From contig NC_135820.1 in the NCBI RefSeq assembly GCF_964213995.1, positions 124,001 to 188,000 of the forward strand: 64,000 bases of DNA, read 5' to 3'. The position numbers and the translations under genes are program-made. This DNA comes from Mustelus asterias. Its lineage: Eukaryota. This document shows, piece by piece, positions 3,193-63,178 of this stretch. The notes beneath the pieces are model-generated. The model had not been told where the DNA came from. It saw only the letters and a program-made list of their open reading frames with translations, and ran no database searches. Position 1 is the stretch's first letter. Every line of letters starts with the position of its first letter.

Positions 3193-3474
3193 ATTCACCA
3201 CGGAATCTCTCAATAACGTCTCCTGATATGATTGACTCTTCATGGATCAGTGTAACTGAGGGGAATTCAACAGTGATAATCTGCTCTGTCGAGAGCTTCC
3301 CAGCTTCTAACCTGACCTGGAGACATCTTAATGTCCCAATGAACAGAACAAGTTCCAACAATGAGCTGTGGTTGGTGATTCCTCACGTTACATCCTGGGA
3401 CACTGGAGACTATCAGTGTGTGGCAGAGAATGAACATGGAGCAGTGGAGGGGTCCATCACCATCACTGTGGAAC
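3193..3474 (+). CDS. Siglec-like gene 1, membrane-proximal C2-type Ig exon (phase 1-1)
   Basis: Acceptor ttttag at 3191-92 and donor gtgagt at 3475. Translates to SPRNLS...IICSVESFPASNLTW...DTGDYQCVAENEHG...ITVE (Ig Cys/Trp/DxGxYxC). Paralogous to 53208-53489 with the same 282-nt length. Confidence 0.95.
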
Positions 3475-3688
3475 GTGAGTGTACACAGACTGCAACAACT
3501 CTCCTAATACGAGCAAATTCAAATCTGCAAGGAAAGAGGATTGGCAAAAACACTTTGGTGAATCTGTGTTGCTAACTGTAACAAACAGTTCTGTGGGACG
3601 GAGGAGTCTCTGGCAGGTGTACCGCCACACTGTAGTGCACACACATGGTGAAATATCCATACGCAGGTGCAGAAATAGAAGATACACA

Positions 3689-4104
3689 NNNNNNNNNNNN
3701 NNNNNNNNNNNNNNNNNNNNNNNNNNNNNNNNNNNNNNNNNNNNNNNNNNNNNNNNNNNNNNNNNNNNNNNNNNNNNNNNNNNNNNNNNNNNNNNNNNNN
3801 NNNNNNNNNNNNNNNNNNNNNNNNNNNNNNNNNNNNNNNNNNNNNNNNNNNNNNNNNNNNNNNNNNNNNNNNNNNNNNNNNNNNNANNNNNNNNNNNNNN
3901 NNNNNNNNNNNNNNNNNNNNNNNNNNNNNNNNNNNNNNNNNNNNNNNNNNNNNNNNNNNNNNNNNNNNNNNNNNNNNNNNNNNNNNNNNNNNNNNNNNNN
4001 NNNNNNNNNNNNNNNNNNNNNNNNNNNNNNNNNNNNNNNNNNNNNNNNNNNNNNNNNNNNNNNNNNNNNNNNNNNNNNNNNNNNNNNNNNNNNNNNNNNN
4101 NNNN
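3689..4104. other. Assembly gap (N run)
   Basis: Run of N with CA-rich flanks. Confidence 0.99.
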
Positions 4105-4186
4105 GCACACACCACATGGAGACATTGTGTGGAAATTTACTGGATTTTTTCTCAATGTCCAGCTCGTGTGAAAAATGTTTTTACAG

Positions 4187-4283
4187 GTCGAGTTTCCAAT
4201 GAATGGAAAGCAGGACTGCTTGGAGCTGGGATCTCATTGTGTGTTGGACTGAGTGGACTCTTCATCTTCCAGTGTGTGAGAAA
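4187..4283 (+). CDS. Siglec-like gene 1, transmembrane exon (phase 1-2)
   Basis: Acceptor tttttacag and donor gtaagt. In frame with the upstream exon: RRVSNEWKAGLLGAGISLCVGLSGLFIFQCVRK. Paralog of the same length at 63082-63178. Confidence 0.92.
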
Positions 4284-4929
4284 GTAAGTGCGAGGGTTCA
4301 ATTTGCTGTTCATCAACATCCTCAGCTCAAACCTCTCTCCTTCCAAGAAGAAGCGGAATTTCTGCCTCACCTTTCACAAGCTCACGGGGAAGTAAATACT
4401 TTTGGAAGTGTGGTGATGAGTGATTCATTCCAGCTGTGGTCCTGGCATTAGGATTTCACACACATACTTTTTCTCTTTCTCTTCGCCTGTCTCATTCACT
4501 CTCTCCTTGCTTCCCCCCCTCCTCTACTTCTCACCCACTCTCTTCCACCCTTTCTTGCACGATCTCCAATCCCTGATATCATAACACCTTACGTTACAGG
4601 AACAGAATTAAGCCATTCGCCCATCGAGTCTCATTCAATCATGGCTGATGTGATTCACATCCCCATTCTCCTGCCTTCTCCCCGTAACCCTTGATCCCCT
4701 TATTGATCAAGAATCTATCTGTCTCTGTCTTAAAGACACTCAATGACCTGACCTCCACAGATGAGTTCCACAGAGTTCCTGGCAATGAGTCCCACAGATT
4801 TACCACCCTCTGGCTGAAGAAATTCCTCCTCATCTTAGTTTTAAAGGAGCGTCTCTTCACGCTGAGCTTGTGCGCATGAGTTCTAGTCTTTCCCACTAGT
4901 GGAAACATCCTCTCCACGTCCACTTTTTA

Positions 4930-9336: not shown

Positions 9337-9421
9337 AAGGTGCAGCTCAGAGAGAGAACATTCAGTCCCTGCAGAGCATGTCGGCAGTGACTCCCCAGGC
9401 AAGCACTCAGACATTCCCCGG
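9337..9421 (+). CDS. Putative 85-nt cytoplasmic exon of Siglec-like gene 1
   Basis: acacag acceptor and strong gtaagt donor. The 85-nt length bridges the TM exon (phase 2) to the terminal exon (phase 0) with no stop (KRCSSEREHSVPAEHVGSDSPGKHSDIPR). Homologous copy at 27802-27886. The pyrimidine tract is weak and the reading frame is uncertain. Confidence 0.55.
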
Positions 9422-9599: not shown

Positions 9600-11930
9600 C
9601 AACCCCCAACTCCATTCAGTTTCAATGATCAAACCCCGTTCAGTATCAATAATCAAACCCCATTCAGTATCAATAATCAAACCCCATTCAGTATCAATAA
9701 TCAAACCCCATTCAGTATCAATAATCAAACCCCGTTCAGTATCAATAATCAAACCCCGTTCAGTATCAATAATCAAACCCCATTCAGTATCAATAATCAA
9801 ACCCCGTTCAGTATCAATAATCAAACCCCATTCAGTATCAATAATCAAACCCCGTTCGGTATCAATAATCAAACCCCGTTCGGTATCAATAATCAGACCT
9901 GTTCCAGTATCAATAATCAAACACTGTTCAGTTTCAATAATCAGACCCCATTCAGTATCAATAATCAAACCCCATCCAGTATCAATAATCAAACCCCGTT
10001 CAGTATCAATAATCAAACTCAGTTCAGTATCAATAATCAAACCCCGTCCAGTATCAATAATCAAACCCCGTTCAGTATCAATAATCAAACCCCATCCAGT
10101 ATCAATAATCAAACCCCGTTCAGTATCAATAATCAAACTCAGTTCAGTATCAATAATCAAACCCCGTCCAGTATCAATAATCAAACCCCGTTCAGTATCA
10201 ATAATCAAACCCCGTTCAGTGTCAATCATCAAACCCTGTTCAGTGTCAATAATCAAACCCCGTCCAGTATCAATAATCAAACCCCGTTCGGTATCAATAA
10301 TCAAACCCCGTTCGGTGTCAATAATCAAACCCCGTTCAGTATCAATAATCAAACCCCGTTCAGGATCAATAATCAAACCCCGCTCAGTGTCAATAATCAA
10401 ACCCCGTTCAGTATCAATCATCAAACCCCGTTCAGTGTCAATCATCAAACCCCGTTCAGTGTCAATAATCAAACCCCATCCAGTATCAATAATCAAACCC
10501 CGTTCAGCATCAATAATCAAACCCCGTTCAGTGTCAATAATCAAACCCCGTTCAGTATCAATAATCAAACCCCGTTCAGTGTCAATCATCAAACCCCGTT
10601 CAGTGTCAATAATCAAACCCCGTCCAGTATCAATAATCAAACCCCGTTCGGTATCAATAATCAAACCCCGTTCAGTGTCAATAATCAAACCCCGTTCAGT
10701 GTCAATAATCAAACCCTGTTCAGTGTCAATAATCAAACCCCGTTCAGTGTCAATAATCAAACGCCGTTCAGTATCAATAATCAAACCCCGTTCAGGATCA
10801 ATAATCAAACCCCGCTCAGTGTCAATAATCAAACCCCGTTCAGTGTCAATAATCAAACCCCGTTCAGGATCAATAATCAAACCCCGCTCAGTGTCAATAA
10901 TCAAACCCCGTTCAGTATCAATCATCAAACCCTGTTCAGTGTCAATCATCAAACCCCGTTCAGTATCAATAATCAAACCCCATCCAGTATCAATAATCAA
11001 ACCCCGTTCAGCATCAATAATCAAACCCCGTTCAGTGTCAATAATCAAACCCCGTTCAGTATCAATAATCAAACCCCGTTCAGTGTCAATCATCAAACCC
11101 CGTTCAGTGTCAATAATCAAACCCCGTCCAGTATCAATAATCAAACCCCGTTCGGTATCAATAATCAAACCCCGTTCGGTGTCAATAATCAAACCCCGTT
11201 CAGTATCAATAATCAAACCCCGTTCAGGATCAATAATCAAACCCCGCTCAGTGTCAATAATCAAACCCCGTTCAGTATCAATCATCAAACCCTGTTCAGT
11301 GTCAATCATCAAACCCCGTTCAGTATCAATAATCAAACCCCATCCAGTATCAATAATCAAACCCCGTTCAGCATCAATAATCAAACCCCGTTCAGTGTCA
11401 ATAATCAAACCCCGTTCAGTATCAATAATCAAACCCCGTTCAGTGTCAATCATCAAACCCCGTTCAGTGTCAATAATCAAACCCCGTCCAGTATCAATAA
11501 TCAAACCCCGTTCGGTATCAATAATCAAACCCCGTTCGGTGTCAATAATCAAACCCCGTTCAGTATCAATAATCAAACCCCGTTCAGGATCAATAATCAA
11601 ACCCCGCTCAGTGTCAATAATCAAACCCCGTTCAGTATCAATCATCAAACCCTGTTCAGTGCCAATCATCAAACCCCGTTCAGTATCAATAATCAAACCC
11701 CATCCAGTATCAATAATCAAACCCCGTTCAGCATCAATAATCAAACCCCGTTCAGTGTCAATAATCAAACCCCGTTCAGTATCAATAATCAAACCCCGTT
11801 CAGTGTCAATCATCAAACCCCGTTCAGTGTCAATAATCAAACCCCGTTCAGTGTCAATAATCAAACCCCGTTCAGTGTCAATAATCAAACCCCGTTCAGT
11901 GTCAATAATCAAACCCCGTTCAGTATCGAT
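9600..11930. repeat. 24-bp minisatellite (ATAATCAAACCCCGTTCAGTATCA), about 97 copies, with 360-bp higher-order repeat
   Basis: 8-aa IIKPRSVS periodic ORF; identical variant patterns restart at 10861, 11221 and 11581. Confidence 0.97.
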
Positions 11931-13992: not shown

Positions 13993-14109
13993 AAGAAAGA
14001 TGAGAAGGTTCTGGAAATGAAATCTGGCCAGGGCCTCAATCCTGATCCAGATGATAATGTTTATGAACCCTACAAGGCTGACAACGACTCAGTCTATGCA
14101 AATGTATAA
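13993..14109 (+). CDS. Siglec-like gene 1 terminal cytoplasmic exon with tyrosine motifs (NVYEPY, ITIM-type SVYANV-stop)
   Basis: Acceptor tgtttctattacag; phase-0 frame KKDEKVLEMKSGQGLNPDPDDNVYEPYKADNDSVYANV*. SVYANV fits the (S/I/V/L)xYxx(I/V/L) consensus. Confidence 0.82.
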   Translation, partial: KKDEKVLEMKSGQGLNPDPDDNVYEPYKADNDSVYANV

Positions 14110-15999: not shown

Positions 16000-16013
16000 T
16001 ACACTATGGGTAC

Positions 16014-16286
16014 TGAACCATAGATGGTTATCACTATGGGTAATTGTACATATGTTACTCTTGTTACTGTTGGGGTTAGGGTTGGGGTGTTCCACCTGTT
16101 GGTATTGTTCTGTGGTACACTCCGGTTGGCTCCGCCGACCTGTAGGAGTATAAAGGTCACTGCACTGCCTAGTGACCCTTTAGTCTGGGATTGTATTGTT
16201 AAGCAGTATGCTCCATTCTTGTTGCTAATAAAAGCCTTTATTTCCCGGATACGATCCAGCCTCCCGAGTGAATTAATCGCGCATCA
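16014..16286 (+). repeat. 5' LTR (first ~5 nt lost), with TATAAAAG at ~16149 and AATAAA at 16227
   Basis: Direct repeat of 20313-20585. Confidence 0.93.
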
Positions 16287-16325
16287 ATTTTATTAGCAAC
16301 AATTTTGGTTGAAGAAAAAAAAACC

Positions 16326-19300
16326 ATGGAGCAAATGTTAAAACCCGATCGGCTTACCTTAGATCCGCGTGCAGCGGGAGCGTCGAACACTTTCGACCAT
16401 TGGTTGAAGTGTTTCCAGGATTATATCGACGCCTCAACAGCAATTCAAAACAACGCCGATAGATTGCGGGTCCTCCATGCAAGGGTAAGCGACACTGTGT
16501 ATGCAACAATCCGTGATGCCCAAGACTACAAAGGGGCCATCGAACTACTTAAGAAGCTGTACAATAAACCGCCAAACGAGATTCATGCTCGGCACCTACT
16601 AGCCACTCGACGGCGGCAGCCCGGCGAAACGACGGGACAGAACCTGCGCGAACTTCAGCAGCTAGCCAGAGCCTGCAATTGCAAGCCAGTGTCGGCTACT
16701 CAATATACTAACGATCTGATCCGAGATGCGTTCGTGGCGGGAATCGGCTCATCCTATATTCGCCTGCGGCTGCTAGAGCAAGGTAACTTAGACCTAGCTA
16801 AGATGGTGGAATTGGCTGATGCGATGGAAACGGCCTCCAGAGGTCTTGAAACTTGCCCCACCGACCACGTGGGAATATTGTGGCAAGTACAGCCACCGAC
16901 TCAACTCTACCCAGCAGCTCCGAGGAACTGCGCGATCGTGCTTTCAACCTCGGACCTGACGGCGGCGGCAGCTCCAGGTGGCCGCGGTGCTATTTCTGTG
17001 GATTGGCAAAGCACCCTCGTCAGCAATGTTCGGCCAGAACGGTATTTTGCTCCGCGTGTGGGAAGAAAGGGCACTATGCTAAAGTGTGCCGAGCTAAACC
17101 ACCTTCGAAGCCAAGCAGTGCGGCGTGTGACTCTCCAGGATCTGTCTCCTCATTTCCGGCTTCATCGAGGTCTTCAACCACGTGCGATTCACGAGCGCCG
17201 CCATTCCTGAGGACGACGATGCAAGACACGTGCGACCTGCGAGTGCCGCCACTTTCAACGCCATCGACCACGTGCGATCCATGGGCACAGCCATTTTGGT
17301 CAACACCGACCGCAGACGACCAGCAGGGGTCACCATCATCGACCATCTCAGCTGCCTGCAGTTGCACTCAAGATTCAACGGTGGCGTCAATCATCCTGGA
17401 CCAGGCCAAGCCTCACAGACTCGACAAGTCCATGATGGACATAGAGGTAAACGGACGCCTGATACATTGTCTGTTTGACAGCGGGAGCACGGAGAGTTCG
17501 GTCTCCGAGTACAGACTGTCAGACAGACAATTTCTATGGCGTCGAGGTCCCGATCTGTTACCGTTCTTGGGAGCTGCGTGGTGAACCTAACGGTGCGGGG
17601 CACAGTTTATGAGAACTTCAGGCTCCTCGTGTTACCGCACCTTTGCGCTCCGATACTCCTGGGACTAGACTTTATGGTCCACCTGAGGAGTGTGACCCTG
17701 CAGTACGATGGGCCACTCCCTCCACTTTCAGTGGGAGAACAGCAGCCTCCAAATTGCCCAGCGCGCTCCACGTGCAGTCTCTCGACACTCAGAATCACCC
17801 CGCCATCTTTATTTGAAAATCTCGTGCCAGGCTGCAAGCCCATCGCAACTAAGAGCAGGCGTTACAGCGCTGAGGATCGGTTCTTTATTCGATCTGAGGT
17901 TCAGCGGCTCCTCAGGGAAGGGATCATTCAACCTAGCACTAGCCCATGGAGAGCACAAGTCGTGGTGGTTAAGACTGGAGACAAGCCCCGGATGGTCACA
18001 GACTATAGTCAGACCATTAATAGGTACACGCAGCTGGACGCGTACCCTCTCCTGCGCATATCTGACATGGTCAACCAGGTTGCGCAGTACCGGGTGTTCT
18101 CCACCATTGACTTGAAGTCAGCCTATCACCAGCTCCCCATTCGCCCAGAGGACCGAAAATATACGGCCTTTGAGGCGGATGGTCGTCTCTACCACTTCTT
18201 AAGGGTCCCCTTTGGCGTCACTAATGGGGTCTCGGTCTTCCAGCGTGCAATAGACCGAATGGTGGACCAAAACGGGCTACGGGCTACCTTCCCGTACCTG
18301 GACAACGTCACTATCTGCGGCCATGACCAGCAGGACCACGATGCCAACCTCCTAAAGTTTTTACGCACTGCGTCTCGCCTGAATCTGACCTATAACGGGG
18401 AGAAGTGTGTATTCAGCAAGCGCCGCCTAGCAATTCTCGGATACGTGGTGGAAAACGGGGTCCTTGGCCCTGATCCAGATCGTATGCGTCCCCTCCTTGA
18501 ACTTCCCCTACCCACTAGTGTCAAAGCACTGAGAAGATGCTTAGGCTTCTTTTCGTATTACGCACAGTGGGTTCCCAATTATGCAGACAAAGCCCGTCCG
18601 CTCATAAAGTCTACCTCTTTTCCCCTGGCAGCAGAGGCTCACTTAGCCTTTGAAGGGATAAAAGCTGACATCGCGAAAGCCACGATGCACGCTGTCGATG
18701 AGTCCATCCCCTTCCAGGTGGAGAGTGATGCATCTGATTTCGCCCTGGCCGCCACACTTAACCAGGCGGGCAGGCCCGTCGCCTTTTTCTCTCGCACCCT
18801 CCAAGGCCCTGAAATTCGGCACTCCACTGTGGAAAAAGAGGCTCAGGCCATTGTGGAGGCCGTCCAGCATTGGCGCCATTACTTGGCTGGAAAACGATTT
18901 ACCCTGCTCACGGACCAGCGGTCCGTGGCCTTCATGTTCAACAACACGTTAAGGGGTAAGATCAAAAATGATAAAATCTTGAGGTGGAGAATCGAACTCT
19001 CCACCTACAACTATGATATCATGTACCGTCCGGGGAAGCTCAATGAGCCTTCAGATGCTCTGTCGCGTGGAACATGTGCCAGTGTGCAGGAGGACCGGCT
19101 ACAGGCCCTCCACAATGATCTCTGCCATCCGGGGATCACTCGGCTCTTCCATTTTGTAAAGGCCCGGAATCTACCCTACTCCGTAGAGGATGTCAGGTCG
19201 ATAACTCGAAGCTGCCAGGTATGTGCTGAATGCAAGCCGCACTTCTACCGACCTGACAGGGCACACCTCATTAAGGCCACTCGCCCTTTTGAAAGACTGA

Positions 19301-20245
19301 GTGTTGATTCCTTCGACAGACCGGAATGTGTACTTCCTCAACGTGGTTGACGAGTACTCCCGATTCCCTTTTGCCATTCCCTGTTCAGACATGACCGCTG
19401 CCACGGTTATCAAAGTTTTGCAGGATCTTTTCACCCTGTTTGGTTACCCCAGTTATATCCACAGTGATAGGGGTTCATCGTTTATGAGTGACGACTTGAG
19501 GCAATACCTGCTCTCTAAAGGGATTGCCTCAAGTAGGACTACGAGTTACAACCCAAGGGGTAACGGGCAGGTCGAAAGAGAAAACGCTACAGTCTGGAAG
19601 GCTGTTTTACTGGCGTTGAGGTCTAAGGGTCTTCCAGTCTCCCGTTGGCAAGAGGTACTTTCTGATGCGCTCCATTCAATCCCGTCCCTCCTGTGTACGG
19701 CAACCAACGCTACCCCTCATGAGCGGATGTTTACCTTCCCTAGGAAGTCTTCCTCTGGGACCTTACTGCCGTCTTGGTTGACGTACTCAGGACCTGTCCT
19801 CCTGCGGTGGCATGTTAGGACCCGCAAGTCCGACCCTTTGGTTGAACAGGTCCATCTCCTCCACGCCAACCCTCAATATGCCTATGTAGCATATCCTGAC
19901 GGGCGAGAGGACACGGTCTCTATTCGAGATCTGGCGCCTGCAGGGGACCTGGAAACCCCCGTCGCTCCCGCATCCTTGGTTAGGGACCCCTTGCCCTTTA
20001 TCTCCCCTCCTGACACGGCGCGGGCAGTATCGGGACCACCACTTAATCCTCTTACTCCCGTGTACAGCTTGCCTGAGTCCAGGAGATTGTCGCCACCTCG
20101 TGGTCCACCCGTCCGTGAGGAGCTGGAGGAGTCACTGGACACCGCCATGGAGAGAGGGTCATCACGGTCACCAGAACCGGCGCTACCGCCAGTGTTGAGG
20201 AGGTCGCAGAGATGGTGCGGCTCTCCAATACGACTGAACTTGTGA
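16326..20245 (+). pseudogene. Gypsy gag-pol, disrupted by about three frameshifts or small deletions (~16980, ~17500, ~19305)
   Basis: ORFs 16305-17210, 16853-17584, 17536-19350 and 19301-20245 carry consecutive domains in different frames. Confidence 0.88.
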
Positions 20246-20307
20246 ATATATGGACAGTTCGTACTGTTTTTTTGCCCCACCGGCCTTTGTTTTAAAGGAG
20301 GGGTGAA

Positions 20308-20585
20308 TGTGGTGAACCATAGATGGTTATCACTATGGGTACTTGTACATATGTTACTCTTGTTACTGTTGGGGTTAGGGTTGGAGTGTTCCACCTGTTG
20401 GTATTGTTCTGTGGTACACTCCGGTTGGCTCCGCCTACCTATAGGAGTATAAAGGTCACTGCACTGCCTAGTGACCCTTTAGTCTGGGATTGTATTGTTA
20501 AGCAGTATGCTCCATTCTTGTTGCTAATAAAAGATTTTATTTCCCGGGTATGATCCAGCCTCCCGAGTGAATTAATCGCGCATCA
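20308..20585 (+). repeat. 3' LTR
   Basis: Starts TG right after the PPT, ends ..GCGCATCA. Confidence 0.95.
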
Positions 20586-25489: not shown

Positions 25490-27670
25490 AAGAACAGGAG
25501 GAAGCCAATTCAGCCCCCTCGAGCCTGTTACACAGGAACAGGAGGAGGCCCCATTCAGCCCCTCGAGCCTGTTACACAGGAACAGGAGGAGGCCCCATTC
25601 AGCCCCTCGAGCCTGTTACACAGGAACAGGAGGAGGCCCCATTCAGCCCCTCGAGCCTGTTACACAGGAACAGGAGGAGGCCCCATTCAGCCCCTCGAGC
25701 CTGTTACACAGGAACAGGAGGAGGCCCCATTCAGCCCCTCGAGCCTGTTACACAGGAACAGGAGGAGGCCCCATTCAGCCCCTCGAGCCTGTTACACAGG
25801 AACAGGAGGAGGCCCCATTCAGCCCCTCGAGCCTGTTACACAGGAACAGGAGGAGGCCCCATTCAGCCCCTCGAGCCTGTTACACAGGAACAGGAGGAGG
25901 CCCCATTCAGCCCCTCGAGCCTGTTACACAGGAACAGGAGGAGGCCCCATTCAGCCCCTCGAGCCTGTTACACAGGAACAGGAGGAGGCCCCATTCAGCA
26001 CCTCGAGCCTGTTACACAGGAACAGGAGGAGGCCCCATTCAGCCCCTCGAGCCTGTTACACAAGAACAGGCGGAGGCCCCATTTAGCCCCTCGAGCCTGT
26101 TACACAGGAACAGGAGGAGGCCCCATTCAACCCCTCGAGCCTGTTACACAGGAACAGGAGGAGGCCCCATTCAGCCCCTCGAGACTGTGACAGAGGAACA
26201 GGCGGAGACCCCATTCAGCCCCTCGAGCCTGTTACACAGGAACAGGAGGAGGCCCCATTCAGCTGCTTTTGAGCCTGTTACACAGGAACAGGAGGAGACC
26301 ACTCAGCCCCCCTCGAGCCTGTTACACAGGAACAGGAGGAGGCCCATTCAGCCCCCCTCGAGCCTGCTACACAGGAACAGGAGGAGGTCCATTCAGCTCC
26401 CCTCGAGCCTACTACACAGGAACAGGAGGAGGCCATTCAGCCCCTCGAGCCTGTTACACAGGAACAGGCGGAGGCCCCATTCAGCACCATTGAGCCTGTT
26501 ACACAGGAACAGGAGGAGGTCCATTCAGCCCCTCGAGCCTGTTACACGGGAACTGGAGGAGGCCCCATTCAGCCCCTCGAGCCTGTTACACAGGACCAGG
26601 AGGAGGATCCATTCAGCCCCATGAGCCTGTTACACAGGGACAGGAGGAGGCCCCATTCAGCCCCTCGAGCCTGTTACACAGGAACAGGAGGAGGCCCCAT
26701 TCAGCCCCCTTCGAGCCGGTTACACAGGAACAGGAGGAGACCCCATTCAGCCTCCCTCGAGCCTGTTACACAGGAACAGGAGGAGGCCATTCAGCCCCTC
26801 GAGCCTGTTACACAGGAACAGGAGGAGGCCCCATTCAGCCCCCTTCGAGCCTGTTACACAGGAACAGGAGGAGACCCCATTCAGCCTCCCTCGAGCCTGT
26901 TACACAGGAACAGGAGGAGGCCATTCAGCCCCTCGAGCCTGTTACACAGGAACAGGAGGAGGCCCCATTCAGCCCCCTTCGAGCCTGTTACACAGGAACA
27001 GGAGGAGGCCCCATTCAGCCCCTCGAGCCTGTTACACAGGGACAGGAGGAGGCCCCATTCAGCCCCTCGAGCCTGTTACACAGGAACAGGAGGAGGCCCC
27101 ATTCAGCCCCCTTCGAGCCTGTTACACAGGAACAGGAGGAGACCCCATTCAGCCTCCCTCGAGCCTGTTACACAGGAACAGGAGGAGGCCATTCAGCCCC
27201 TCAAACCTGTTACACAGGAACAGGAGGAGGCCCCATTCAGCCCCCTTCGAGCCTGTTACACAGGAACAGGAGGAGGCCCCATTCAGCCCCTCGAGCCTGT
27301 TACACAGGAACAGGAGGAGGCCCCATTCAGCCCCCTTCGAGCCTGTTACACAGGAACAGGAGGAGACCCCATTCAGCCTCCCTCGAGCCTGTTACACAGG
27401 AACAGGAGGAGGCCATTCAGCCCCTCGAACCTGTTACACAGGAACAGGAGGAGGCCCCATTCAGCCCCCTTCGAGCCTGTTACACAGGAACAGGAGGAGG
27501 CCATTCAGCCCCTCGAGCCTGTTACACAGGAACAGGAGGAGGCCATTCAGCCCCTCGAGCCTGTTACACAGGAACAGGAGGAGGCCCCATTCAGCCTCCC
27601 TCGAGCCTGTTACACAGGAACAGGAGGAGGCCCCATTCAGCCCCTCGAGCCTGTTACACAGGAACAGGAA
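25490..27670 (+). repeat. 44-bp minisatellite (ACACAGGAACAGGAGGAGGCCCCATTCAGCCCCTCGAGCCTGTT), about 49 copies
   Basis: Direct periodicity; the 44-aa repeat in the ORFs equals three units. Confidence 0.96.
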
Positions 27671-27801: not shown

Positions 27802-27886
27802 AGGGAGCAGCACAGGAAGAGGACATTCAGCCCAAGCAGAGCGGGTCAGCAGTTACTCCCCAGGCGAGCAGACGGACAGGTCCTGG
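27802..27886 (+). other. Second copy of the 85-nt exon-like segment; candidate non-coding first exon of gene 2 or orphan cytoplasmic exon
   Basis: Homologous to 9337-9421 including flanks (ctttctaattaaa.acacag ... gtaagtaac...gattggaa..acttcca.gaccaa); lies 2 kb upstream of the leader exon acceptor. Confidence 0.55.
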
Positions 27887-28123: not shown

Positions 28124-29795
28124 GACTGAGGGAGTGCTGCACTGTCAGAGGCTCAGTGCTGAGGGAGTGCCGCACTGTCAGAGGCTCAGTACTGAGGGAG
28201 TGCTGCACTGTCAGAGGGTCAGTACTGAGGGAGCGCTGCACTGTCAGAGGCTCAGTACTGAGGGAGTGCTGCACTGTCAGAGGCTCAGTACTGAGGGAGT
28301 GCCGCACTGTCAGAGGCTCAGTACTGAGGGAGTGCCGCACTGTCAGAGGCTCAGTACTGAGGGAGTGCTGCACTGTCAGAGGCTCAGTACTGAGGGAGTG
28401 CTGCACTGTCATAGGGTCAGTGCTGAGGGAGTGCTGCACTGTCAGAGGGTCAGTACTGAGGGAGTGCTGCACTGTCATAGGGTCAGTGCCGAGGGAGTGC
28501 TGCACTGTCAGAGGGTCAGTACTGAGGGAGTGCTGCACTGTCATAGGGTCAGTGCTGAGGGAGTGCTGCACTGTCAGAGGGTCAGTACTGAGGGAGTGCT
28601 GCACTGTCATAGGGTCAGTGACGAGGGAGTGCTGCACTGTCAGAGGCTCAGTGCTGAGGGAGTGCCGCACTGTCAGAGGCTTAGCACTGTGGGAGTGCTG
28701 CACTGTCAGAGTGTCAGTGCTGAGGGAGTGCCGCACTGTCAGAGGGTCAGTACTGAGGGAGTGCCGCACTGTCAGAGGGTCAGTACTGAGGGAGTGCCGC
28801 ACTGTCAGAGGGTCAGTACTGAGGGAGTGCCGCACTTTCAAAGAGGGTCAGTAATGAGGGAGTGCCGCACTGTCAGAGGGTCAGTACTGAGGGAGTGCCG
28901 CACTGTCAGAGGGTCAGTGCTGAGGGAGTGCCGCACTGTCAGAGGGTCAGTGCTGAGGGAGTGCCGCACTGTCCGAGGGTCAGTGCTGAGGGAGTGCCGC
29001 ACTGTCAGAGGGTCAGTGCTGAGGGAGTGCCGCACTGTCAGAGGGTCAGTGCTGAGGGAGTGCTGCACTGTCAGAGGGTCAGTACTGAGGGAGTGCCGCA
29101 CTGTCAGAGGGTCAGTACCTAGGGAGTGCCGCACTGTCAGAGGGTCAGTACTGAGGGAGTGCCGCACTGTCAGAGGGTCAGTACCTAGGGAGTGCCGCAC
29201 TGTCAGAGGGTCAGTACTGAGGGAGTGCCGCACTGTCAGAGGGTCAGTACTGAGGGAGTGCCGCACTGTCAGAGGCTCAGTACTGAGAGAGTGCCGCACT
29301 GTCAGAGGGTCAGTGCTGGGGGAGTGCTGCACTGTCAGAGGGTCAGTACTGAGGGAGTGCTGCACTTCAGAGGGTCAGTACTAAGGGAGTGCCGCACTGT
29401 CAGAGGGTCAGTACTGAGGGAGTGCTGCACTGTCAGAGGGTCAGTGATGAGGGAGTGCCGCACTGTCAGAGGGTCAGTGCTGAGGGAGTGCTGCACTGTC
29501 AGAGGGTCAGTGCTGAGGGAGTGCCGCACTGTCAGAGGGTCAGTGCTGAGGGAGTGCTGCACTGTCAGAGGATCAGTGCTGAGGGAGTGCCGCACTGTCA
29601 GAGGGTCAGTGCTGAGGGAGTGCCGCACTGTCAGTGGGTCAGTACTGAGGGAGTGCTGCACTGTCAGAGGGTCAGTACTGAGGGAGTGCCGCATTGTCAG
29701 AGGGTCAGTACTGAGGGAGTGCCGCACTGTCAGAGAGTCAGTACTGAGGCAGTGCCACACTGTTAGAGAGGCAATATTGAGGGTCAATGCAGCAC
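28124..29795 (-). repeat. 33-bp minisatellite, reverse orientation, about 50 copies
   Basis: Reverse complement of the unit at 1-3056. Confidence 0.96.
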
Positions 29796-29923
29796 TGTGA
29801 GCATGTTTTCTTGTAGCAGTTCTGATCTCTCGAGAGCTGTCGGACAAGAGGTGAGGTCTCATTAACTGCTTTCTCTTTCAGAGCTTGAGAGGGAGAAGCT
29901 GGTGAAATATCTGGGAGTGGACA

Positions 29924-29963
29924 ATGATCGGGAAATCTTACTTCTTCCTGTCACTTCTCCAAG
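29924..29963 (+). CDS. Siglec-like gene 2 signal-peptide exon (exon 29882-29963, ATG at 29924)
   Basis: Acceptor ctgctttctctttcag, ACAATGA start context, MIGKSYFFLSLLQ then G|gtaata (phase 1). Joins the V-set exon to give MIGKSYFFLSLLQVGLS-QEW. Confidence 0.8.
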
Positions 29964-30184
29964 GTAATATCTTCGTCAGCTCGGACAGATTTATGGTTAA
30001 TAGTCTTTGTAAAAGATCATTCTTATTGAGCTCTGATTGGGAACCAATTCAGCAGTGACCCAGTGTGCAAACTCTCACCAAGTCCCATTCACCCATCACC
30101 CCGCGCTCACTGATACACACTGACTCCCCGTCAGAGAACACCTCAAAATTCAAATTCAGTTCCTTATGTTAAACGCTCTCCAAT

Positions 30185-30505
30185 ATCTCTGTAACCTCCT
30201 CCAGCCCCTACACCCCCCCCCCTTTCTCTGTATCCTCCTCCGCTCACTACACCCCTCCCTATCTCTGTAACCTCCTGTAGCCCGTACACCCCCTCCCTAT
30301 CTCTGTAACCTCCTGTAGCCCGTACACCCCCTCCCTATCTCTGTAACCTCCTGTAGCCCGTACACCCCCTCCCTCTCTCTGTAACCTCCTGTAGCCCGTA
30401 CACCCCCTCCCTATCTCTGTAACCTCCTGTAGCCCGTACACCCCCTCCCTATCTCTGTAACCTCCTGTAGCCCCTACACCCCCTCCCTATGTCTGTAACC
30501 TCCTC
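30185..30505 (+). repeat. 38-bp minisatellite (ATCTCTGTAACCTCCTGTAGCCCGTACACCCCCTCCCT), about 8 copies
   Basis: Direct periodicity. Confidence 0.9.
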
Positions 30506-37719: not shown

Positions 37720-40700
37720 AGTAACTGTTACCGCATAAGGCAGCTATGTCTGTTGGGGTTGCTTCTGAGGTAAACCAGCAGCTTGCTTTTCAAATCAGGC
37801 TTTCTCCGCAGAAACTACTCACTGTGAGTTCCTTTTTGTTCGGGGAGGTCTACAAAACAGCCCTCTGCAGAGGTTTAAGTTTTTTCCCCTTTGATCTTTC
37901 CCTTACTAGAGATTGGGGGGGAAGGGAAAGTCAGGGAACCAAGAGGTGAAGGAATCAGTGGGAAGCGTAGCTGCTTAGGATTACAAAAAATCATGAAAAG
38001 ACAGCACTCAGGAGAGGTTACGATAGTCCCCATCTCACAAAATATGACACAGTGTCTGGAAAGGCTCAGTAGACCAAGGTCCACCACACTACGAAAACAA
38101 AAAGGGACGGTCAATAGGGAATTAAAGGTGCTATATTTAAATGCCCGCAGTGTCCGGAACAAGATAGATGAGCTTGTGGCCCAGATTGTGACTGGCAGGT
38201 ATGATGTGGTAGGCATCACAGAGACGTGGTTGCAGGGGGTTCAGGACTGGCAGTTAAACATCCAGGGATTCACAACCTATCGAAAAGACAGAGGGGTGGG
38301 TAGAGGGGGCGGGGTTGCCTTGTTAATTAGAAATGAAATTAAATCAATAGCACTAAACGACATAGGGTCAGACGATGTGGAGTCTGTGTGGGTAGAGTTG
38401 AGGAACCACAAAGGCAAAAAAACCATAATGGGAGTTATGTACAGGCCTCCTGACAGTGGTCAGGACCAGGGGCACAAAATGCACCACGAAATAGAAAGGG
38501 CATGTCAGAAAGGCAAGGTCACAGTGATCATGGGGGATTTCAATATGCAGGTGGACTGGGTAAATAATGTTGCCAGTGGACCCAAAGAAAGGGAATTCAT
38601 TGAATGTTTACAGGATGGCTTTTTGGAACAGCTTGTGATGGAGCCCACGAGGGAACAGGCTATTCTGGACTTAGTGTTATGTAATGAGCCAGACGTGATA
38701 AAAGATCTTAAAGTAAGGGAACACTTAGGAAGCAGTGATCATAATATGGTAGAATTCAGTCTGCAATTTGAAAGAAGGAAGGCAGAATCAGATGTGAAGG
38801 TTCTACAGTTAAATAAAGGTAATTACAGGCGCATGAGGGAGGAACTGACAAAAATCGACTGGAAGCAGAGCCTAATGGGAAAGACAGTAGAACAGCAATG
38901 GCAGGAGTTTCTGGGAGTAATTGAGGACACAGTGCAGAGGTTCATCCCAAACAAAAGAAAGGTTATCAGAGGGGGGATTAGGCAGCCATGGCTGACAAAG
39001 GAAGTCAGGGAATGCATCAAGGCAAAAGAGAGAGCCTATAATGTGGCAAAGAGTAGTGGGAAGTCAGAAGATTGGGAAGGCTATAAAAACAAACAGAGGA
39101 TAACAAAGAGAGAAATAAGGAAGGAGAGGATCAAATATGAAGGTAGGCTAGCCAGTAACATTAGGAATGATAGTAAAAGTTTCTTTAAATACATTAAAAA
39201 CAAACGGGAGGCAAAAGTAGACATTGGGCCGCTCCAAAATGACGCTGGTAATCTAGTGATGGGAGACAAGGAAATAGCTGAGGAACTTAATAAGTACTTT
39301 GCGTCAGTCTTCACAGTAGAAGACATGAGTAATATCCCAACAATTCAGGAAAGTCAGGGGGCAGAGTTGAATATGGTTGCCATCACAAAGGAGAAAGTGC
39401 TAGAGAAACTAAAAGGTCTGAAAATTGATAAATCTCCGGGCCCAGATGGGCTACATCCTAGAGTTCTAAAGGAGATAGCTGAAGAAATAGTGGAGGCGTT
39501 AGTTATGATCTTTCAAAAGTCACTGGAGTCAGGGAAAGTCCCAGAGGATTGGAAAATCGCTGTTGTAACCCCACTGTTCAAGAAGGGAACAAGAAAAAAG
39601 ATGGAAAATTATAGGCCAATTAGCCTAACCTCAGTTGTTGGCAAAATTCTAGAATCCATCGTTAAGGATGAGATTTCTAAATTCTTGGAAGTGCAGGGTC
39701 GGATTAAGACAAGTCAGCATGGATTTAGTAAGGGGAGGTCGTGCCTGACAAACCTGTTAGAGTTCTTTGAAGAGATAACAAATAGGTTAGACCAAGGAGA
39801 GCCAATGGATGTTATCTATCTTGACTTCCAAAAGGCCTTTGACAAGGTGCCTCACGGGAGACTGCTGAGTAAAATAAGGGCCCATGGTATTCGAGGCAAG
39901 GTACTAACATGGATTGACGATTGGCTGTCAGACAGAAGGCAGAGAGTTGGGATAAAAGGTTCTTTCTCAGAATGGCAACCGGTGACAAGTGGTGTCCCGC
40001 AGGGTTCAGTGTTGGGGCCACAGCTGTTCTCTTTATATATTAACGATCTAGATGACGGGACTGGGAGCATTCTGGCCAAGTTTGCCGATGATACAAAGAT
40101 AGGTGGAGGGGCAGGTAGTATTGAGGAGGTGGGGAGGCTGCAGAAAGATTTAGACAGTTTAGGAGAGTGGTCCAAGAAGTGGCTGATGAAATTCAACGTG
40201 GGCAAGTGCGAGGTCGTACACTTTGGAAAAAAGAATAGAGGCATGGACTATTTTCTAAACGGTGACAAAATTCATAATGCTAAAGTGCAAAGGGACTTGG
40301 GAGTCCTAGTCCAGGATTCTCTAAAGGTAAACTTGCAGGTTGAGTCCGTAATTAAGAAAGCAAATGTAATAGAACATAGAACATAGAAAGTCACAGCACA
40401 AACAGGCCCTTCGGCCCACAAGTTGCGCCGATCACATCCCCACCTCTAGGCCTATCTATAGCCCTCAATCCCATTAAATCCCATGTACTCATCCAGAAGT
40501 CTCTTAAAAGACCCCAACGAGTTTGCCTCCACCACCACCGACGTCAGCCGATTCCACTCACCCACCACCCTCTGAGTGAAAAACTTACCCCTGACATCCC
40601 CCCTGTACCTACCCCCCAGCACCTTAAACCTGTGTCCTCTCGTAGCAACCATTTCAGCCCTTGGAAATAGCCTCTGAGAGTCCACCCTATCCAGACCCCT

Positions 40701-43431: not shown

Positions 43432-43800
43432 TTGGACTGTCACAAGAGTGGAAAAGGAACACTCCACGAAAGGTGACAGCACAGGAAGGTTCATGTGTAC
43501 AGATCCCATGTCATTACAGTTATCCATCACATTTGGAAAAACAGACGCGAGATGGAGTCTGGTTTTATGCTGAGAAACAGATTCCCTGGGCTCCCCTAGC
43601 CTTTCACTCCAAGGATCACAATCACGAGTTGCAACAATTCCGCCATCGGACCCGGCTGTCTGGAGACCTGAAAGATGGCGACTGTTCCCTGATTATAAAC
43701 AACGTCACACGGGGAGATGCTGGACCTTATTTTTTCAGAATAGAGTTTGACACCGGCCCCAGCCATAACTATTACCCAGTAACCCGGCTTCGCGTTTCTG
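43432..43800 (+). CDS. Siglec-like gene 2, N-terminal V-set sialic-acid-binding Ig exon (phase 1-1)
   Basis: Acceptor ctctccccag and donor gtaagt. W..TP..V.AQEGSCVQIPC.YSYP, RTRL.GD...DCSL.I, DAGPYFFR: Siglec B/E-strand Cys, extra Cys, no F-strand Cys, Arg codon at 43737-39. Confidence 0.95.
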
Positions 43801-52065: not shown

Positions 52066-52359
52066 ATTTCACAGATAAACCCACGATATTCCCTGCTGAA
52101 ATTATTGCAGGAAAGCGTGTGAACATAAGCTGCACCTTCAACACAACGTGCAATGGAACAGCACCTGTCTTAACCTGGGACACTCCCACTGACGTACCTG
52201 GGTCAGTCTCAAACACTGTAACTCAGCATGGTGTCACTCTGACCTATACTTCTGTTCTGACCCTGATCCCATCACTCAAACACCACGGACACAATCTCAC
52301 CTGTAGAGTGAGATCTCCATCTGTTTCATTGGAGCGGACCCTCATACTGACTGTGCAAT
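52066..52359 (+). CDS. Siglec-like gene 2, second Ig (C2-set) exon (phase 1-1)
   Basis: Acceptor gtgttag (in-frame alternative AG at 52073-74) and donor gtaagt. DFTDKPTI..ISCTFNTTCNGTAPVLTW..SVLTLIP...HGHNLTCRV carries the extra Cys typical of Siglec domain 2. Confidence 0.95.
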
Positions 52360-52577: not shown

Positions 52578-53080
52578 CCTCTGACCCTCTGACAGTGCGG
52601 CACTCCCTCAGTACTGACCCTCTGACAGTGCGGCAATCCCTCAGTACTGACCCTCTGACAGTGCGGCAATCCCTCAGTACTGACTCACTGACAGTGCGGC
52701 CCTCCCTCAGTACTGACCCTCTGACAGTGCGGCACTCCCTCAGCACTGACTCTCTAACAGTGCGGCACTCCCTCAGTACTGACCCTCTGACAGTGCGGCA
52801 CTCCCTCAGTACTGACCCTCTGACAGTGAGGCACTCCCTCAGTACTGACCCTCTGACAGTGCGGCACTCCCTCAGCACTGACCCTCTGACAGTGCGGCAC
52901 TCCCTCAATACTGACCCTCTGACAGTGCGGCACTCCCTCAGTACTGACCCTCTGACAGTGCGGCACTCCCTCAGTACTGACCCTCTGACAGTGCGGCACT
53001 CCCTCAGTACTGACCCTCTGACAGTGCGGCACTCCCTCAGTACTGACCCTCTGACAGTGCGGCACTCCCCCAATACTGAA
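52578..53080 (+). repeat. 33-bp minisatellite, about 15 copies, same intron position as in gene 1
   Basis: Same unit as 1-3056; downstream flank homologous to 3056-3192. Confidence 0.95.
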
Positions 53081-53207: not shown

Positions 53208-53489
53208 ATGCACCACAGAATCTCTCAATGACTTTTCCTGATACAATTAACCCTTTATCGATCAATTTAATTGAGGGGAGTTCTACAGTGATAATCTGCT
53301 CTGTCGAGAGCTTCCCAGCTTCTAACCTGATGTGGAGACATCTTAATGTCCCAATTAACAGCACAAGATCCAACAATGAGCTGTGGTTGGTGATTCCTCA
53401 CGTTACATCCTGGCACACTGGAGACTATCAGTGTGTGGCAGAGAATGAACATGGAGCAGTGGAGGGGTCCATCACCATCACTGTGGAAC
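53208..53489 (+). CDS. Siglec-like gene 2, third Ig (C2) exon (phase 1-1)
   Basis: Acceptor tttttag and donor gtgagt; YAPQNLS...IICSVESFPASNLMW...HTGDYQCVAENEHG. Confidence 0.95.
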
Positions 53490-58500: not shown

Positions 58501-58771
58501 TCGCAGTGTCTGCAGCTCAGCCTCCAGCTAATTGACTCAAGGCCAAAGCTGCTCATGCCCCAGAGACGACTGGAGACGTGACCGTACTGGCATCCAGGAG
58601 CTCCCACATGCGGCAGCCATGACACATCCCTTGTCGTGCCATCGCTCTGTGTTTTAATTAACTACGTAATTATTTTATTCAATTATTTATTTTGTTTTAT
58701 ATACTTTGCCACAAATTCCAGCACTAGTTTAAACATTAGGAATAGAATAGATCTTCACCACTCAACATACA

Positions 58772-59650: not shown

Positions 59651-59794
59651 CATACTTTCGAGATACACACCAGTCCTGTTTGCATGTATTTAGCAATTGC
59701 TAAGTCCCCAAGCCAAGCAGTTTCCTCCGGTCCTGTTGTGGTGAGTGCGGATAGACCTTCGCTGAGTCTGTGGATTGGACACCCTTCTATAATA

Positions 59795-60900
59795 TAGAAA
59801 CATAGAAAACTACAGTACAAAACAGGCCCTTCGGCCCCACAAGTTGTGCCGAACATATCCCTACCTTTTAGACTTACCTATAACCCTCCATCCTATTAAG
59901 TCCCATGTACTCATCCAGGAGTCTCTTAAAAGACCCTATTGAGTTTGCCTCCACCACCACTGACGGCAGCCGATTCCACTCGCCCACCACCCTCTGTGTG
60001 AAAAACTTCCCCCGAACATATCCCCTGTACCTACACCCCAGCACCTTAAACCTGTGTCCTCTCGTAGCAGCCATTTCCACCCTGGGAAAAAGCCTCTGAG
60101 AGTCCACCCGATCTATGCCTCTCAACATGTTATACACCTCTATTAGGTCTCCTCTCATCCTACGTCTGTCCAAGGAGAAAAGACCGAGCTCCCTCAGCCT
60201 ATCCTCATAAGGCATGCCACTCAATCCAGGCAACATCCTTGTAAATCGCCTCTGCACCCTTTCAATCTTTTCCACATCCTTCCTGTAATGAGGTGACCAG
60301 AATTGAGCACAGTACTCTAAGTGGGGTCTGACGAGGGTCTTATATAGCTGCATCATTATCCCCGGACTCCTAAACTCAATCCCTCGATTGATAAAGGCCA
60401 GCACACCATACGCCTTCTTAACCACCTCCTCCACCTGCAGGGCCGATTTTAGAGTCCTATGGACCCGGACCCCAAGGTCCTTCTGATCCTCTACCGTACT
60501 AAGAGTCTTTCCCTTTATATTGTACTCCTTCATCCCATTTGACCTGCCAAAATGGACCACTACGCATTTATCTGGGTTGAAGTCCATCTGCCACTTCTCC
60601 GCCCAGTCTTGCATCCTATCTATGTCCCTCTGTAACTTCTGACATCCCTCCAGACTATCCACAACCCCACCAACCTTTGTGTCGTCGGCAAACTTACCAA
60701 CCCATCCCTCCACTTCCTCATCCAGGTCATTTATGAAAATGACAAACAGCAAGGGTCCCAGAAGGGTCCCTGGGGCACACCACTGGTGACCGACCTCCAA
60801 TTAGAAAGTTAGAAAAAGACCCATCTATACACACTCTCTGCCTCCTTTGGGCAAGCCAGTTCTGGATCCACAGGGCAGCAGATCCTTGGATCCCATGCCC
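59795..60900 (-). mobile_element. 5'-truncated CR1 LINE
   Basis: ORF 59874-60800; close relative of 15019-15999. Confidence 0.93.
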
Positions 60901-61419
60901 ACTCACTTTTATGGTGCATTGCTTTCTCTCTCCCACAGGCACATAGGGAAAAGGCACTTTTTACCCCTGTAGTGGAGCAAGAAGCAATTCTAGAGGGTGA
61001 AAAAGTTAGTCAAAACAAAGGACTGTCCCCCACCAGCCCCCGCAACTTCCACAACCCACCAAACTCCCAGTATTCCACTCAGGTCGCACTCCAGTGCTGG
61101 GTTGTACTGAAATATCTGAATTTATATGTTTTGAATGTAAAGGCACGAGTTGAGCCCAGGTACAGAAAAAACAGCTCATGTAGTTTCCTTCCTTAACTAT
61201 CTGCAGCTGCTCCACAGTGCACACCTTCTCTCTGCCTGCTGGGTCACCTAGATGTGATTTAGAATTTAAATGGCACTTGCAGTTAAATATTAAATACAAA
61301 CAATATTAGATAATTAGAAAGAGAATTAATAAATCCACTCAACTCACCAAACTCACAGCACTCTAGTGCGAGGTCACAAAGACATGTCTGAAATTATATG
61401 TTCTGAAAATAAAGGCACT

Positions 61420-62880
61420 AGCTTGTTGGAGATGGTCATTAGTTGGCAATCATGTGGCATGAATGTTATTTGCCACCGATCAGTCCAAGCCTGAATGTTA
61501 TAGAAGTAGAAGTTTATTTATTAGTCACAAGTAGGCTTACATTCACACTGTAATGAAGTTACTGTGAAAATCCCCCAGTCACCACATTCTGGCACCTGTT
61601 CAGGTACACTGAGGGAGAATTTAACATGGCCAATCCACCTAACCTGCACATCTTTGGACTGTGGGAGGAAACCCACACAGACATGGGGAAAATGTGCAAA
61701 CTCCACACAGACAGTGACCCAAGCCGGCAATCGAACTTGGGTCCCTGGCGCTGTGAGGCAGCAGTGCTAACCACTGCGCCACCATGCCGTCTCACTTATC
61801 CACTTCTTACTGCATGCAGGCATGGACTGTTTCATTGTCTCAGGAGCCAACGATGGTGCTGAACATGGTGCAAATTCAGACATCATCCCAACATCTGACC
61901 TTATGTTGCGGGGGAGGTCAGTGATGTAGATGGTCAGGCCTTGGACACCACCCTGAGGGATTCCTGCAGTGACGTCCTGGAGTGGAGATGGTTGACCTCC
62001 AACCACCACATCCATCTTCCTTTGCGTCAGGTATGACAGGGCTCCTTGACGCCACACTCAAATGCTGCCTTGACACCAAAGGCAGCCACTCTCACCTCAC
62101 CATTGGAATTCTGTTATTTTGTACATGATTGGGCCAAGGCCATCAGGAGTGAAGATAAGTGGTCTTGGCCAGAATCCAAGGAGCAGGTTATTTCACAGTA
62201 AGTGCCGCTTGATAGCACTGTTGATGACACCTTCCCCCGCTTTGCTCATGATTGAGAGTAGACTGATGGCGCAGTAATTGGCTGGGTTGGTTTTGCAGTA
62301 AGTTCTGGAGCACAAGCTTCAATACCATTGCCAGGGTGTTATCAGAGCCCATAGCCCAGGCAGCAGCCAGTGCCTTTAACCATTTCTTGCTAACACATGG
62401 AGTGAATCAAATTGGCTGAAGACTGACATCTGCGATGCTGGAGACCACTGGGATAAATCATCCACTCGACATTCCTGGCTGAAGAAGGTGCAAATGCTTC
62501 AGCCTGAACAAAGAAGAGTACAGCACAGTACCGGGCCCTTTGGCCTACCAAGTCTGTGCCGACATAGATGCCTCTCTAATCTAATATTTTCTTGCCTCAA
62601 GGTGGTCCATATCCCTCTATTCTCTGCCTATTCATGCATCTATCCAGATGGCTCTTGAACGTTATTATAGAATCTTTGCACTGCACTCCCTCATCATTGA
62701 GAATGGGGATATTTGTGGAGCTTCTTCCTCTAGTTAGTTCTTTAATTATCCACCGCCATTCACGACTGGATGTGGCAGGACTGCAGAGTTTGGATCTGAT
62801 CCGTTGGTTATGGGATCACTTAACGCTGCCTATAACATGCTGCTTCCACTATTTAGCATGGATGTGTCAGCTCAGCTATT
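61420..62880 (-). mobile_element. Decayed LINE of the SINE-headed family (also ~53600-53930), interrupted by a SINE
   Basis: Reverse complement resembles 22290-22370, 23920-24050 and 25150-25490; GIPQG.V.G RT motif in ORF 61767-62057. Confidence 0.6.
61500..61790 (-). mobile_element. HE1-related SINE with alternative 3' tail
   Basis: HE1 head and core, but tail ggggattttcacagtaacttcattacagtg..cctacttgtgac. Confidence 0.78.
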
Positions 62881-63081
62881 TGGCACCTTAGTTATATATG
62901 ATTCCTACTTACAGAAACCAGCGTATACAAATATAGGATATAAATATTGTTGAGGTAAATGCAACTTGTCTCGACCTTACACGTATAGACAGATATCACT
63001 TTACAAGCTCAGAATGACTACATGTACATCTGAGAACCATTCTAAAACTGTACTGGAATCACTCATTGGCTATTTTTACAG

Positions 63082-63178
63082 ATCAAAATTTCAACCAATG
63101 GATAACAGGATTGCTTGGAGCTGGAATCACTTTGTGCGTTGGACTGATTGGATTCATCATCTACAAGTGTGTGAGAAA
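63082..63178 (+). CDS. Siglec-like gene 2 transmembrane exon (phase 1-2)
   Basis: Acceptor tttttacag and donor gtaagc; HQNFNQWITGLLGAGITLCVGLIGFIIYKCVRK; paralog of 4187-4283. Confidence 0.92.

Follow-up and report, generated by a model that had tools for sequence, protein, structure and literature searches.

Two three-Ig Siglec genes in a likely paired-receptor cluster of the shark Mustelus asterias

The stretch of DNA treated here, called the window, comprises 64,000 nucleotides of the shark Mustelus asterias (NCBI RefSeq assembly GCF_964213995.1, contig NC_135820.1, positions 124,001 to 188,000 of the forward strand). It corresponds to G000:C20:124001-188000 in our numbering; positions without a prefix are window coordinates, and those with a contig prefix are coordinates of that contig. 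We think it probable that the window holds two open-frame Siglec genes with three immunoglobulin (Ig) domains each, which form part of a shark paired-receptor cluster that likely represents an elasmobranch CD33-related branch. The cytoplasmic tails of both genes, with twin Y-x-N motifs, would recruit Grb2-type adaptors and not act as classical SHP-1 brakes.

A preliminary description of the window, made from its letters, had proposed two genes, of which gene 1 supplied a C2-set domain, a transmembrane (TM) segment and a tail ending in SVYANV, and gene 2 a leader, a V-set domain, two C2-set domains and a TM segment. Both pieces could be reconstructed with canonical junctions, and both genes are complete and stop-free (leader-V-C2-C2-TM-tail) once the exons beyond the window are added. 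Gene 1 encodes 425 residues with the C-terminal end SVYANV and gene 2 encodes 459 with the end SIYANK; all their coding exons (seven and eight, respectively) are open with intact splice sites. The leader of gene 1 (C20:103228), its V exon (C20:119829-120194) and its first C2 exon (C20:121246-121539) lie outside the window. Inside, on the + strand, are its second C2-type Ig exon (domain 3; 3193..3474, AG/GT, phase 1-1, open frame), a TM exon of the tail class I defined below, with an uncharged membrane core (4187..4283), cytoplasmic exon 1 (9340..9421, with an alternative acceptor 3 bases upstream) and the last coding exon (13993..14109, stop at 14107-14109), which carries twin tyrosines 11 residues apart (YEPY ... 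YANV). In the intron between the C2 and TM exons, 415 bases (3689-4104) are masked and their sequence is unreadable. Gene 2, also on the + strand, has a leader exon (29882..29963; ATG at 29924, signal peptide of 13 codons, phase 1), a V-set exon with the essential arginine in the F strand (YFFR) and Siglec-type cysteines (43432..43800), a first C2 exon (52066..52359; Siglec domain 2, with its extra cysteine), a second C2 exon (53208..53489; domain 3) and a class I TM exon (63082..63178). Its tail is found just beyond the window (C20:188286-196409), in three exons (G000:C20:188286, 188903 and 196302). The internal junctions of gene 2 are AG/GT throughout, with phases 1-1-1-1-2. A scan of the window with four Ig profiles returned no Ig exons beyond the four given above, and the conserved block immediately 5' of the V exon is intronic.

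On their sequence features, both window genes are members of the Siglec family, the arginine and the cysteines typical of it being preserved in each. The V exon of gene 2 matches Siglec-7 and MAG with E ~1e-13, and therefore beyond chance; it scores 47-55 bits against Siglec-7, MAG, Siglec-8, -10, -5, CD33 and sialoadhesin, and 24-25 bits against CD22. Its essential arginine aligns with that of Siglec-7 and MAG, and 17 of the cluster's 18 intact V exons have this residue, the broken gene having lysine instead. The V cysteines C21 and C84 are invariant (24/24) and C26 is nearly so, all of them aligning with cysteines of Siglec-7 and MAG. The Siglec cysteine pattern can be recognized in the sequence, with the B-E strand pair, extra cysteines in domains 1 and 2 and no F-strand cysteine, and the type I membrane layout of leader, V, C2-set, TM and tail is present in both gene models. 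The AlphaFold model of the gene 2 V domain (predicted local distance difference test score of 90) has as nearest folds MAG (Z 18.2, root mean square deviation 1.7, 119 aligned residues) and sialoadhesin (Z 18.0), followed by Siglec-10, Siglec-15 and CD33 (Z ~16; CD33 16.0), and an Atlas look-up returned Siglec/MAG-like clusters only. The Siglec-like identity first given to these genes is thus borne out by arginine, cysteines, V matches and predicted fold, and their V domains would bind sialic acid through the conserved arginine.

The cluster to which both genes belong extends over about 680 kb (C20:97-775 kb), where about 11 gene units were mapped, together with 12 leaders and 23 V exons or V fragments. 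The tandem, duplicating character proposed for it agrees with the presence of these units on both strands and of abundant debris in the form of orphan leaders, broken V exons and many fragments. Searches retrieved 118 family proteins, spread over 21 species of sharks and rays; there were no holocephalan matches in the family homolog searches, which is weak evidence, and a tail-only search returned 3 of 35 candidates, all of them sharks, and was too insensitive to bound the range. Two parts of the preliminary description are not supported in the form given. The family is not a three-Ig one, as the V-C2-C2 layout is found in only 3 of the ~11 units, the others having more V domains (two or three) or numerous C2 repeats; the cluster itself reaches 3 tandem V domains, and the wider family has 1-7 V and up to 13 C2 domains. 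Neither is it lineage-specific, as it spans those 21 species and the gene 2 V domain is nearer to copies of other sharks, with up to 83% identity, its paralogs reaching 74% at most. A five-Ig member can be aligned colinearly with MAG from domain 1 to domain 5 (E 4.9e-57), and therefore the three-Ig genes are likely to be shortened forms of the five-Ig layout. The automatic NCBI names of the family (Siglec-, MAG- or CD22-like) are based on best hits and are inconsistent.

The proteins differ in their tails, and here the paired-receptor character comes to light. Class II tails (41/118) are of the type LLYANI ... TEYAQI. With the immunoreceptor tyrosine-based inhibitory motif (ITIM) defined as I/L/V/S-x-Y-x-x-L/V and the immunoreceptor tyrosine-based switch motif (ITSM) also as in PMC5112662, the ITIM pattern is found in 26 of the 41 and the ITSM pattern in 25 of the 41, although in some ray tails the distal motif was misread by the pattern. 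Class III (7/118, plus P0233 of the bamboo shark) has an arginine in the TM segment and a tail of about 10 residues, and is a predicted accelerator likely coupled to DAP12 or FcR-gamma; Siglec-14, -15 and -16 couple to DAP12 via basic TM residues (PMC13233462). Class I (24/118, from 14 species) has no TM charge and ends in a tyrosine pair, 11 residues apart in 22 of the 24. The cluster contains four class I, four class II and three class III units, and of these three one is broken. Its Arg-TM exons at C20:415501 and 737822 are open and that at 647494 is broken; we infer that they belong to the nearest upstream V-C2 units, as in the models of other species. The preliminary description overlooked these TM-Arg members, which point to a paired-receptor system. 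Some TM segments have a glutamate in the membrane core (C20:247725-247817 and Pristiophorus models).

V domains and tails are combined as a mosaic. Pairs of class III and class II V domains are 97% and 94% identical, the gene 1 V domain is 86-87% identical to class II and class III V domains, and in a tree of 177 V domains the tail classes are mixed and species and order are followed more. Near-identical V domains across tail classes resemble the pattern of the paired receptors Siglec-5/14 and -11/16. The V exons have a mean identity of 72% and a dS of 0.25, in comparison with 94% and 0.05 for domain 2, which suggests old V lineages on a homogenised stalk and not positive selection on the whole domain. 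The pooled dN/dS is 0.68 (0.52-0.90) for V, not above 1, and 0.58 for domain 2; positive selection over the whole V domain was not found, which is a point against the reading favoured here.

Both window genes belong to class I, and a tail with an ITIM plus a distal ITIM-like or ITSM motif is found in neither of them. In the first motif of class I, asparagine is found at +2 in 22 of the 24 tails and cysteine at +3 in 20; position +3 is C, F or W in all 24, which departs from the pattern of the activation motif of the immunoreceptor tyrosine-based type (ITAM; two Y-x-x-L/I, 10-12 apart). The last motif has V, I or L at +3 in 20/24 and A or P at -2 in 11/24, with the full ITIM pattern in 10/24. 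In gene 2 there are three Y-x-N motifs, with lysine at +3 of the last one, so that the ITIM pattern is not formed. Y-x-N is the Grb2 docking core of motifs of the immunoglobulin tail tyrosine (ITT) type (PMC4263166), and activating Ceacams of Xenopus conserve it as well (PMC5112662). Thus, the class I twin Y-x-N tail likely docks Grb2, to judge from its motifs.

Several facts weigh against this view of the tails. The asparagine of the last class I motif was demanded by the search pattern, so its presence in 24/24 is by construction, and 46 of the 118 proteins, mostly truncated models, are unclassified by tail. The first motif of gene 1 lacks the asparagine and its last one, SVYANV, fits the ITIM. 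Y-x-N is also found in 11/19 tails of the tetrapod CD33-related clade, often beside ITIMs, and for this reason the activating reading is only a lean. It has to be asked, then, whether gene 1, and class I generally, are inhibitory receptors in which the terminal SVYANV acts as an ITIM recruiting SHP-1/2. The match of SVYANV to the published pattern (PMC5112662), the aliphatic +3 residue of most class I tails, the uncharged TM segment and the loss of the first Y-x-N in gene 1 speak for it. However, the full pattern is limited to those ten tails, the -2 position is A or P in eleven, gene 2 has its lysine, and the same cluster has a separate class with ITIM plus ITSM. We consider this inhibitory function rather unlikely; calling SVYANV an ITIM is a label by interpretation. 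The term inhibitory that was first applied to the window genes is therefore doubtful, being wrongly placed or, at the least, short of proof: the tail of both is of the twin Y-x-N kind, the ITIM fits only part of their homologs and is absent in gene 2, and the ITIM plus ITSM tails belong to other family members.

Returning to the Grb2-type adaptor reading, the system may work as follows. The V domain, in which the arginine is observed, would grip sialic acid, and clustering of the receptors would lead to phosphorylation of the tyrosines, which have an acidic context, by Src/Syk-family kinases. The phosphorylated Y-x-N would then dock Grb2 or GRAP, by analogy with ITT-type motifs, and signalling would be tuned or boosted. 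Neighbours with near-identical V domains would act as a predicted brake (ITIM plus ITSM) or a predicted accelerator (TM arginine and short tail, likely with DAP12 or FcR-gamma), while duplication and exon shuffling would re-pair V domains with tails. The likely purpose would be defence against microbes that imitate the sialic acid of the host, in analogy with Siglec-5/14 and -11/16.

The descent of the family was studied with a tree of domains 1-2 (67 of 141 units and 215 columns with IQ-TREE; FastTree on all 141), in which thirty representatives had been identified by separate searches and the others were placed by the tree. One branch separates CD22-like proteins, sialoadhesin and other Siglecs of fish and sharks from a set made up of the shark family, a group of percomorph teleosts and the CD33-related proteins of amphibians, reptiles and mammals, with an SH-like approximate likelihood ratio test (SH-aLRT) value of 93.1 and an ultrafast bootstrap (UFBoot) of 96. 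The same branch is obtained with FastTree (0.955), and the groups on the CD33-related side follow the order of the species tree. A rough four-point bit-score test preferred joining the shark with CD33-related proteins over joining it with MAG for 4 of 5 CD33-related proxies, by 4-31 bits. In domains 1-2, a single-V member scores 94 bits against CD33 and 84-86 against MAG.

The genes adjoining the cluster also bear on its descent. In the flank scan against Pfam, which covered 150 of 375 candidate frames, a G protein-coupled receptor (GPCR) of FFAR type was found at C20 20 kb and hepcidin at C20 51 kb. Three family genes come between hepcidin and exons of the PP2A scaffold A subunit (C20 285-316 kb), which are inside the cluster, as is a GPCR of FPR/CRTH2/CMKLR type (C20 345 kb), with the remaining members beyond. 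After the cluster there is a CD22-like gene (P0113; C20:879500-925000, + strand; V-C2-V-C2x7 with two V, 1288 residues), whose layout is common to at least five sharks. A six-Ig Siglec-like gene without the essential arginine and with an ITIM plus ITSM-like tail (C20:955000-982100, - strand) is sister to the family in the tree. The cluster thus holds a MAG-type position, between hepcidin and the CD22-like gene, and also contains candidate marker genes of the CD33-related cluster, namely the PP2A scaffold A exons and the FPR/CRTH2/CMKLR-type GPCR; the human CD33-related cluster is, we assume, flanked by FPR genes and PPP2R1A. In mammals HAMP, MAG, CD22 and FFAR1/3/2 are consecutive (PMC6478285, PMC4453067).

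Orthology with CD22 or sialoadhesin does not agree with these data, as both are across the 93/96 branch and the CD22-like gene is a separate one. As for MAG, which is a single conserved five-Ig gene, the shark family is multigene, its window genes have three Ig domains and its V identity is about 30%. No MAG ortholog was located in the genome by motif searches, with one chance match, or by protein searches with V and domain-5 queries, of which only a first-look subset was scored, so MAG may have been missed. The preliminary description had left the choice between an ancient CD33-related branch and a convergent expansion from a MAG/CD22-like ancestor; 1:1 orthology with CD22 or sialoadhesin can be set aside and the CD33-related link is favoured. 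Several observations tell against a CD33-related origin: MAG and Siglec-15 are not in the domain 1-2 tree, the clade of the family with its Arg-less neighbour has a support of only 55.6/89, the five-Ig form is colinear with MAG, the four-point test favoured MAG for one of the 5 proxies, and the V fold is nearer to MAG and sialoadhesin (Z 18.2 and 18.0) than to CD33 (16.0).

The family could then have arisen by convergence, through expansion within elasmobranchs of MAG or of the gene directly ancestral to it, with CD33-like paired signalling gained independently of the mammalian CD33-related cluster. The place of the cluster would be that of MAG in the mammalian order (PMC6478285), the alignment of the five-Ig members over the whole of MAG and the top fold match of the V model would follow naturally, and the lack of a separate MAG ortholog among the scored genome matches agrees with it. 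The tree, however, joins the family to teleost and tetrapod CD33-related proteins, the single-V member prefers CD33, the PP2A scaffold A exons and the FPR-type GPCR are what we take to be neighbours of the human CD33-related cluster, and first-look scoring may have passed over MAG. In our opinion, this convergent origin is doubtful.

A different question is whether the window really has two genes. NCBI model P0011, which contains gene 2, joins to it the leader and V exon of gene 1 and omits the rest of gene 1. If that model were correct, the gene 1 leader and V would be spliced to the gene 2 V, giving a V-V-C2-C2 protein, and the rest of gene 1 would be a relic. Domain 3, TM and tail of gene 1 are found at 100% in none of the retrieved proteins, the bamboo shark P0021 is a two-V protein with the same tail layout, and models of other species have an internal V with a start like that of a first V. 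Nevertheless, within the 47-kb intron that would be skipped there are five exons of gene 1, all open and canonically bounded, as well as the own intact leader of gene 2, and because of this P0011 is a probable chimera of both window genes. In addition, the gene 2 V exon has the kind of acceptor seen in V exons placed after a leader, and cross-mapping between paralogs could produce such a model. Comparison of junction motifs across species did not separate the fused model from the two-gene one. Over the V-C2 stretch of gene 1, runs X19-X21 also cover the introns (30, 30 and 22 of 30 bins) and are DNA-like. X1 (presumed RNA, other species) covers exons and repeats only, two of its pieces stopping at the C2 acceptor, and is neutral on expression; no V-to-C2 joint is found among its pieces on gene 1, which is evidence neither way. 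On balance we regard the fused gene as quite unlikely. That both genes are silent recent duplicates that have yet to decay is very improbable: the cluster is rich in fragments, orphan leaders and broken V exons, but every coding exon (7 in gene 1, 8 in gene 2) has an open frame and undamaged splice sites, the V domains of the two genes differ with a dN/dS of 0.157/0.316, and the class I tail is conserved across 14 species.

Cytoplasmic exon 1 recurs as a copy, its splice sites preserved, at 27802..27886 (+ strand), 2.1 kb 5' of the gene 2 leader. Such copies are found 0.5-7.8 kb 5' of 11 of the 12 leaders of the cluster, and 38.8 kb in the case of the twelfth. About 300 bases of them are near 95% alike and their upstream flanks differ. 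In a basking-shark NCBI model (P0042/P0043) the equivalent exon is spliced to the leader. The copy probably represents either a recruited 5' untranslated region (UTR) exon or a promoter element; likely it is the former, taken over from the tail of a neighbour. Another copy is present on scaffold C192, and at C20:208600-212700 there is an orphan cytoplasmic-like exon with a leader and no V before the next leader.

Other features were observed in the window and elsewhere in the genome. A long terminal repeat (LTR) retrotransposon at 16014-20585, which we take to be of the Gypsy type, has 273-base terminal repeats 97% alike and gag-, protease-, reverse transcriptase/RNase H- and integrase-like frames in pieces. 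Fragments of the second open reading frame (ORF2) of long interspersed elements (LINE), presumably of the CR1/L2 type, are present at 37879-40386 (the longest, 835 codons) and in many shorter pieces. Minisatellites are found at 1-3029 (unit of 33 bases), 9608-11927 (24), 25492-27669 (44), 28125-29783 (33), 30184-30504 (38) and 52581-53079 (33), the 33-mer being in both orientations beside Siglec exons. On the - strand, C20:602000-642200 contains a unit with ~10 near-identical C2 exons and partial domain-2 exons, an internal tandem duplication. Further family members are on scaffold C192 and on C10, where a single class I three-Ig copy is located on another chromosome (C10:90664500-90686700, +). 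More Siglec-like clusters with a MAG-type last domain are found at C20:5.46-5.80 Mb and 15.0-16.0 Mb, several of their V domains being without the essential arginine. Two sialoadhesin-like V-C2 starts with the arginine, their identity judged by eye, are at C16:69.00-69.08 Mb.

CD33-related Siglecs are usually seen as a fast-evolving, largely mammalian arms-race family of unclear origin. A wider view, which we consider less likely than not, would have paired CD33-type receptors exist from the first jawed vertebrates and sharks keep an unsplit ancestral locus, with markers of the MAG/CD22 and CD33-related regions within one megabase. The family would occupy there the slot of MAG, with up to seven V domains and three signalling modes, one of them being a twin Y-x-N class which needs no adaptor and is not known from mammals. 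If true, the paired system would be dated to more than 400 million years ago and the origins of MAG and CD33-related Siglecs would be tied together. New candidate parts would be sensors of sialic acid with several V domains and a class of tails for which signalling via Grb2 is predicted. In practical terms, the public annotation merges the two window genes.

As for known systems, the automatic NCBI annotation recognizes the same family and describes no classes, pairing or synteny. Our literature searches gave no paper describing this shark family, and earlier fish-Siglec papers may mention sharks. Fish CD33-related clusters near other Siglecs were reportedly described by Cao in 2009, and therefore the general idea has a teleost precedent.

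Xenopus paired Ceacams are similar in that ITIM/ITSM members are paired with ITAM-like and Grb2-binding Y-x-N members and share ligand-binding domains with them (PMC5112662). They belong to another Ig family, without the Siglec arginine site, and have true or split ITAMs, whereas the first motif of shark class I has cysteine at +3. MAG (Siglec-4) is alike in the colinearity of five-Ig shark members over domains 1-5, the top fold match and the slot between hepcidin and CD22. It is unlike in that the shark family is multigene, with variable domain number, V identity of only ~30% and immune-type tails, the window genes covering domains 1-3 only.

The closest likeness is with CD33-related Siglecs. 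The paired Siglec-5/14 and -11/16 have basic-TM partners with near-identical V domains (PMC13358205, PMC6288428, PMC13233462), as in the shark cluster. CD33-related Siglecs also share with it the tandem cluster with turnover, the V-set domain with the essential arginine followed by C2 domains, the greater divergence of V than of domain 2 (72% vs 94%), the ITIM plus distal ITSM-type tails (in the class II neighbours, not in the window genes) and the grouping in the domain 1-2 tree. Unlike them, the shark cluster has up to 3 tandem V domains and its relatives up to 7, the maximum known in mammalian Siglecs being two, in Siglec-12. The shark V fold is nearer to MAG and sialoadhesin, the cluster adjoins the CD22-like and hepcidin genes, and a third tail class ends in twin Y-x-N.

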